Shown: positions 1,788 to 63,534 of the stretch, in pieces
Layout of the letters: each line of letters opens with the position of its first letter
Numbering within the stretch: the first letter of the stretch is position 1
Source: Lytechinus pictus
Lineage: Eukaryota
DNA: 64,000 nt
Direction of reading: 5' to 3'
Assembly (NCBI RefSeq): GCF_037042905.1
Contig: NC_087250.1
Location: 14,696,001-14,760,000, forward strand
The notes under the pieces: model-generated
The model's database searches: none
What the model saw: only the letters and a program-made list of their open reading frames with translations
What the model was told of the DNA's origin: nothing
Made by a program: the position numbers and the translations under genes

Positions 1788-63534
<61,747 letters not shown>

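Follow-up and report, generated by a model that had tools for sequence, protein, structure and literature searches.

The window, by which we mean the whole 64-kb stretch of DNA analysed, carries the word TACATGTA far above expectation, and at both sites where repeats allow its polarity to be read the word is a derived 6-bp insertion at TA. We regard these words as probable footprints left by the excision of cut-and-paste DNA transposons that target TA, with the Tc1/mariner superfamily as the likeliest source. TACATGTA works like a Tc1/mariner footprint; the spectrum of products departs from the canonical one, and membership in the superfamily is unproven. The process is probably a known one at an unusual scale and uniformity.

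Abundance, polarity and age of the word

Once simple repeats are set aside, TACATGTA is the top 8-mer of the window.

3377..63660, no strand: field of TACATGTA, 54 words at 49 loci (exact count and shuffles)
Word starts, part 1: 3377, 3485, 6223, 6294, 8793, 12770, 12829, 14798, 15038, 18969, 22926, 23894, 24459, 24712
Word starts, part 2: 24718, 25307, 25603, 25850, 28416, 29544, 30854, 30860, 30977, 31978, 33905, 34171, 34259
Word starts, part 3: 34265, 34284, 34324, 35407, 35842, 35848, 36540, 36910, 39534, 39700, 41280, 42160, 42561, 42655
Word starts, part 4: 42823, 42829, 43147, 45037, 45975, 47091, 49478, 52209, 56821, 58376, 60487, 61151, 63653

Against the 54 exact copies, 100 dinucleotide-preserving shuffles average 1.54 and never exceed 5, and Markov models of order 0–3 predict 1.5–3.1; all word counts are local to the 64-kb window. 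The first-pass annotation had estimated roughly 40+ copies against about 2 expected, which the exact count of 54 against 1.5 bears out. Its main site at 36540..36547 is exact, and the measured density of 0.77 loci per kb is slightly higher than the nearly one per 1.5 kb it had given. Four of its eight example positions are exact (3485, 6223, 34259, 56821) and four are off by one, the true starts being 24712, 30854, 35842 and 42823. Among TA-xxxx-TA words TACATGTA is by far the most enriched, with a log10 p of -51 and the runner-up TAGGCCTA at -4.7. The excess is sharply bounded: after removal of the CATGTA units, TACATG (33), CATGTA (33) and ACATGT (32) stand at background, with 31–34 expected. 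About 1% of TA sites are occupied (49 of 4793 TA dinucleotides), and the inserted units make up 324 of the 64,000 bases, always in steps of six. A single word is present at 44 of the 49 loci and a tandem double at five. The loci are not significantly clustered (p 0.07, two tests), and flank symmetry and palindromy around the word are at background. Over the whole window TpA and CpG are both under-represented (observed/expected 0.76 and 0.54), CpG more strongly.

1788..63528, + strand: host gene, dihydropyrimidinase-like (protein identity and tblastn exon map)

Nearly all of the window is this one gene. The exon from 1788 shares 71% identity with a dihydropyrimidinase-like protein from another sea urchin, Diadema antillarum, and tblastn gives a first coding exon from 1788, an intron 1 of about 43 kb and the other coding exons at 45749–63528. 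Intron 1 holds 40 of the 49 loci (p 0.035). The word does not occur in the 16 coding stretches tested, an absence that is uninformative because just 0.9 copies are expected there. The window contains 31 ORFs of 100 aa or more. Short tandem duplications span exon edges of the gene at 47158–47635, 52040–52376, 53839–54070 and 46152–46438, and tblastn finds partial second exon copies at 47190–47461 and 53992–54071. Long ATC/GAT trinucleotide arrays lie in its introns (51272–51619 and 55491–56178; 117 copies at 97%; two degenerate arrays).

The polarity of the word can be read at two of the 49 loci, both inside repeats; the other 47 have no empty paralogue in the window.

36540..36547, no strand: index scar, CATGTA at 36542–36547 inserted at TA in a family A copy (paralogues and contigs)
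36449..36848, + strand: family A repeat copy bearing the index scar, TTAA-flanked, about 400 bp (repeat comparison)
39534..39541, no strand: scar in a family B copy; the following base also differs, G vs A (paralogues and contigs)
39066..39683, no strand: family B palindromic repeat copy with the scar (repeat comparison)

The scarred family A copy reads GGATCTACATGTAGATC at 36540, and the copies at about 45057–45469 (+) and about 9425–9828 (-) read GGATCTAGATC; written by parts, this is GGATC-TA-CATG-TA-GATC against GGATC-TA-GATC in the copies at about 45060 and about 9426. For family B, GTGCATATACATGTAGCTG at 39534 (GCATA-TA-CATG-TA-GCTG) stands against GTGCATATAACTG in the copy at 43647–44244, and the opposite arms and a partial copy at 28418–28652 are empty as well. 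Both comparisons had been drawn in the first-pass annotation and are confirmed by these copies. Contigs from four public runs (X1, X2, X6 and X10) were compared with 33001–43200, the results being those of the best 32 of over 228,000 pieces and 12 of 178 indel rows, mostly repeats. Among the matches listed, loose contig ends gather at position 36546 (83 in X2 and 51 in X6) with the empty form as consensus, and 166 X6 contigs continue as the empty form at position 39535. Because both the paralogues and the contig consensus are empty, CATGTA at 36540 and at 39534 is a derived insertion, and at neither of the two sites that repeats can polarise is TACATGTA ancestral.

CATG occurs 419 times in the window. 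A two-base direct repeat surrounds 76 of these copies, TA in 54 cases and the next best in 5, and a direct repeat of 7 bp is found around one of the 419 (28412) and of 8 bp around none. Since longer repeats around CATG are rare, the target duplication is TA only. The TA-specific 6-bp insertion that had been proposed from the sequence is thus derived at two of two polarisable sites, with TA alone duplicated. Families A and B, which are TTAA-flanked, are hosts of scars and not donors, and each has a very high copy number in all four runs compared. We take them to resemble Kolobok-type non-autonomous elements, given their TTAA flanks and purine-purine...pyrimidine-pyrimidine ends.

The contigs also bear on the age of the words.

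41280..41287, no strand: word spanned by organism A (X6) with no letters missing, and by X10 with identical sequence (contigs)
42561..42662, no strand: words 42561 and 42655, spanned with no letters missing in three samples of organism A (contigs)

Contigs of X10 (organism B), possibly the source sample, agree with the window in every letter across 39700 and 41280. The runs X1, X2 and X6 (organism A) diverge from the window by 6–9% in the unique pieces used, and among the matches listed their pieces cross four of the 17 loci of 33001–43200; in the X1 piece word 42561 falls at the edge, as does word 42655 in the X2 piece. As pieces of organism A omit nothing at three of these sites, the relative shares the word there, intact or decayed. 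The scars are therefore not all recent, and what had been described as polymorphic indels are not all young polymorphisms. An X2 contig omits 9 letters somewhere within 361 bp at 41280 and an X6 piece omits 15 letters at the double at 35842; both omissions, not located within their pieces, are compatible with absence of the word. From the sharing and these possible absences together, the scars would span the split from organism A. One organism A contig (X1, record 7) skips 122 bp, 42754–42875, including the double at 42823. The X10 matches across 39700 and 41280 and the bridging of three sites by organism A largely refute an assembly or sequencing artefact.

One-mismatch neighbours of TACATGTA number 62 against 36–46 expected, which corresponds roughly to a mean decay of about 4% per base. 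This age estimate is weak because the control word TACTAGTA shows an excess of one-mismatch neighbours too (29 vs 18). With assumed numbers and a decay spread of 0–8%, scars would form, per base, at about 1% of the rate of point mutation, a high figure, though not an absurd one, for an active cut-and-paste family. A reading of TACATGTA as a selected protein-binding site or regulatory motif could draw on the three sites common to the diverged relative and on a precedent in Phytophthora, where the word has been discussed as a transcription-factor site (PMC11134190, PMC3520976). Sharing at 6–9% divergence is, however, expected of neutral DNA, and the modest one-mismatch excess is what decay predicts. 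Within repeat copies, moreover, a single 6-bp insertion creates the word, which is scattered over introns and repeats. We consider a selected site very unlikely.

Target bias, doubles and other scar words

Target choice was assessed on the symmetrised flanks of the 49 loci (98 sides), with stacked words stripped. At +1, A is depleted (12 vs 30; not-A 86 vs 67.6, p 1e-5); at +2 purines are raised (59 vs 49.2, p 0.03) and at +3 T is raised (44 vs 31.2, p 0.005). G at +4 is not significant (21 vs 16.4), and T at +1, the Tc1 preference, is not enriched (39 vs 34.8). For comparison, the literature gives CAYATATRTG as the Tc1 target consensus (PMC9635669) and ATATATAT as the preferred target of ZB (PMC7913693). 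The flank bias is weakly Tc1-like: +2 and +3 agree with Tc1 and ZB, and +1 does not.

24712..24725, no strand: tandem double TA-CATG-TA-CATG-TA; also 30854–30867, 34259–34272, 35842–35855 and 42823–42836 (5 doubles)

The five doubles exceed the 0.6 expected under uniform TA choice (P 1.5e-4). Under the measured target bias a scar-made CATG flank scores about three times the average, and the expectation rises to 2.2 (P 0.057). With this biased expectation, re-targeting accounts for much of the doubles, and slippage may add to them.

Other words of the type TA-x-TA occur as insertions and in stacks with TACATGTA.

5304..5311, no strand: second scar word TAGGCCTA; its 6 inserted bp are absent from other units of a 99-bp array (unit comparison)
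32793, 33911, 33993, 36000: further TAGGCCTA copies
5542..5548, no strand: TAGCCTA, made by 5 bp inserted in a unit of the 99-bp array, again at 5645–5651 in the next unit (unit comparison)
12819..12836, no strand: stack TA-CCG-TA-CTG-TA-CATG-TA (sequence reading; no empty paralogue)
33900..33918, no strand: stack TA-CTG-TA-CATG-TA-GGCC-TA, then CATGTT (sequence reading, not polarised)
60483..60494, no strand: stack TA-CG-TA-CATG-TA (sequence reading, not polarised)

The 99-bp tandem array spans 5271–6039, and its unit at 5759–5857 is empty for TAGCCTA. That TAGGCCTA and TAGCCTA are indels too speaks for footprints. TAGGCCTA is found 5 times against 0.3 expected, TAGCCTA/TAGGCTA 7 times against 3.3, TACCGTA/TACGGTA 6 times against 2.3 and TAC[A/T]GTA 19 times against 8.7–10.4. 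With 178 words tested, only TAGGCCTA is clearly significant among the second words; TAC[A/T]GTA fails full correction, and its roughly 9–10 copies above background compare with an excess of about 52 for TACATGTA. The +4 words TACATA/TATGTA show no excess (57 vs 49–60; upper bound 11–22 extra copies), and the partial scars of other overhang models (TACATA, TACATTA, TACATATGTA and TACAGCTGTA) are not enriched in the window.

Other scar words adjoin TACATGTA on 4 of 98 sides against 0.9 expected (p 0.015, for a word list chosen after looking), and under a generic adjacency rule on 7 of 98 sides against 3.1 (p 0.035); TA adjacency with any spacer is not raised (27 vs 23 on 98 sides). In the heterotypic stacks different words share one TA; unpolarised as they are, these stacks are suggestive. 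Because the TA of a scar has the favoured flank, a scar that is hit again would give rise to doubles and to stacks with TAGGCCTA, TAGCCTA and TAC[A/T]GTA.

These observations bear on replication slippage or local duplication, by which a (TACATG)n microsatellite would be seeded and expanded from chance words. The five tandem doubles and several near-doubles would follow from it, as would a number of doubles somewhat above the biased expectation. Stacks of different words on one TA are not slippage since slippage cannot produce them, and the empty alleles at 36540 and 39534 hold no CATG to copy, which refutes slippage for both polarised sites. With 44 of the 49 loci single, it explains some doubles and not the singles, and we judge it highly unlikely as the origin of the word.

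Donor search and mechanism

8129..8371, no strand: MITE of 239 bp with CAC...GTG ends (8131–8369), between two TA (terminal-repeat scan)

Where the first-pass annotation had suggested looking for abundant CA...TG families and filled alleles, strict and relaxed terminal-repeat scans of the window found a single TA-flanked CA...TG element, this MITE, and no element-filled allele was seen among window paralogues or the best 32 of more than 228,000 contig pieces. The left TA of the MITE is shared with TACTGTA (8124–8130). Its termini fit a 2+2 scar; its ends are, we assume, CMC/EnSpm-like, so that it may not belong to Tc1/mariner. The same scans found no TA-flanked element with CAT or CATG ends in the 64 kb. 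One CAT-ended candidate (45476–48845) was rejected for 13 mismatches in 30, and a CCA-ended candidate because it lies inside another element. A metagenome scan with the MITE end returned 117 loci, which contain 4 copies of TACATGTA in 340 kb against 8 expected and, at an E threshold of 1e-4, do not match the window. The MITE and a 426-bp metagenome MITE (L063 1187–1612) have 16 terminal letters in common, TA included, and are otherwise unrelated. Further palindromic MITE-like inserts lie at 9184–9419, which adjoins the family A copy at about 9426, and at 742–953, 21284–21848, 31380–31787, 33087–33694, 26339–26498, 60885–61048, 44738–44901 and 51086–51252.

Two micro-elements with CAT...ATG ends lie between 7-bp direct repeats at 8006–8037 and 28825–28850, the inner parts being an 18-bp perfect palindrome (8013–8030) and a stretch of 12 bp (28832–28843); shuffling yielded one such element in 30 shuffles. 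They resemble P-type excision scars that have retained both ends, and suggest that this genome keeps excision scars. CATG between 6-bp direct repeats is found at 4965–4980 (CATATC) and 22590–22605 (GTTTTC); these may have been left by an element that duplicates 6 bp of its target, or may be chance occurrences. Could the words themselves be minimal scars of P-like elements with CAT...ATG ends? The micro-scars at 8013 and 28832 place such products in the window, and yet at TACATGTA TA alone is duplicated rather than 7–8 bp, which largely refutes this origin. Together with the artefact considered above, we hold it to be extremely unlikely.

For the footprint reading, the proposed course of events is as follows. 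An element would insert at TA and duplicate it, the duplication being what the polarised copies display. Later it would be excised by cuts staggered so that a few of its terminal bases stay behind on either flank as 3' overhangs, and germline end-joining would retain these bases, giving the observed product TA-CATG-TA. With one scar left at every jump and the element gone elsewhere, scars would accumulate until they are more numerous than elements. Two versions can be distinguished. In version (i), which is quite possible within this reading, CA...TG ends would be cut 2 nt inside, and both CA overhangs would be joined end to end and filled. This version would use ends known to be present, match the worm product, extend to GG+CC and fit the P-type micro-elements. 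In version (ii), a more tentative possibility, CAT or CATG ends would be cut 3–4 nt inside and the self-cohesive overhangs would anneal mutually to one product. CAT would pair through AT and CATG would be fully cohesive, and the same rule would give both GGC-type words. Having a single product, version (ii) would explain the absent +4 and TACATTA by-products; its donor was not found in the window. Since the usual +4 scar is without excess, cutting or repair differs from that of textbook Tc1.

Uniformity of the product counts against footprints, given that worm germline Tc1 repair is highly variable, and so does the fact that neither an element-filled site nor a cognate transposase came to light in the window. 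The same uniformity, and the lack of by-products, would suit a TA-specific micro-insertion without any insertion and excision cycle, in which TA is cut by a transposase or nuclease and repair adds a fixed palindrome, for example by capture of short end fragments or by hairpin or template-switch synthesis. It would also agree with the lack of any filled allele seen and with at least 49 scars against one TA-flanked CA...TG element in the window. To our knowledge no such TA-specific, element-free insertion mechanism has been described. The flanks offer no template for a fixed CATG, which element ends would supply, and Tc1 demonstrably yields TACATGTA. We therefore think micro-insertion unlikely, though less so than the other alternatives to excision footprints.

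Extending the footprint reading to all words, one may speculate, with some reserve, on a scar 'lexicon', in which short 3' overhangs retained from TA-targeting elements are joined by mutual pairing. CAT or CATG ends would then give only TACATGTA, CAG ends only TAC[A/T]GTA, and GGC ends both TAGGCCTA and TAGCCTA/TAGGCTA. The family behind the dominant word would be self-cohesive, would have made hundreds of thousands of jumps with few copies left and would make its own next target, and stacks would record the visit order of families. A more radical version may be an insertion activity specific for TA that works without mobile elements.

The excision half of cut-and-paste transposition normally leaves no countable genomic record. 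Scars of one form, present at about 1% of TA sites, would amount to a cumulative, datable record of jumps, would show target choice free of selection against large inserts and would record germline break repair in a marine invertebrate. Such scars would also be a notable source of indels, a seed for (TACATG)n repeats and a supply of polarised markers for population and species trees. For motif searches the word would be a trap, as it could be called a binding site.

Comparison with known footprints

A literature search, with most subscription papers outside its reach, found no paper on a genome-wide TACATGTA excess as scars, and the accessible parts of PMC5521727 and PMC5224488 hold nothing on the +6 word. 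The closest precedent is worm Tc1, whose excision leaves non-complementary 2-nt 3' overhangs and gave 26 germline products in 103 revertants (PMC4490562). Among in-frame germline revertants TACATGTA accounts for 24 of 103 and precise excision for 25 (PMC4490562 Supplementary Data 3, row L), where 24/103 is our own reading of the spelling in row L and the assay detects in-frame products only; in polq-1 worms TACATGTA is found in 3 of 39 (PMC4490562 Supplementary Data 3). Unselected somatic Tc1 scars are TATGTA/TACATA in 78% of cases (PMC12632400). According to 10.1101/659086, TACATA/TATGTA are the commonest footprints of Tc3 and TACAGTA/TACTGTA those of Sleeping Beauty, and the eight Sleeping Beauty footprints given there exclude TACATGTA. 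The first-pass statement that Tc1 leaves TA-CA-TG-TA is accordingly right in that Tc1 can do so, and too general in that the usual Tc1 and Tc3 scars are TACATA/TATGTA. Of its wider reading as a Tc1/mariner footprint, the TA-specific derived insertion and the ability of Tc1 to leave the word stand; the Tc1/mariner origin is what we infer.

The word resembles Caenorhabditis elegans Tc1 in the duplicated TA, in TACATGTA as a real product and, weakly, in the bias for A at -3 and T at +3. It differs in that +4 is the usual product in the worm and germline products are varied, whereas here a uniform +6 word dominates and the Tc1/Tc3 spectrum led by TACATA/TATGTA is not seen (57 vs 49–60). Unlike the events scored in worm assays, the scars here are standing genomic sequence at about 1% of all TA sites. 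With Sleeping Beauty and ZB the word would share terminal bases kept between two TA (10.1101/659086; PMC7913693; PMC5224488). The Sleeping Beauty spectrum, in which TACAGTA/TACTGTA are commonest, is not seen here either: the TAC[A/T]GTA type, with its 19 copies, is mildly enriched and occurs in two stacks. Unlike the urchin word, the CAG overhangs of Sleeping Beauty are not self-cohesive. Minos leaves a +6 scar of four element-derived bases plus the duplicated TA, as two non-palindromic words, one per end. In contrast, a single palindromic word is present here, and a Minos-like origin would need CATG ends, not found in the window. P-element scars hold element ends head to head between target duplications, and the CAT...ATG ends are alike; the target duplication of 7–8 bp sets them apart from TACATGTA, which has TA alone.
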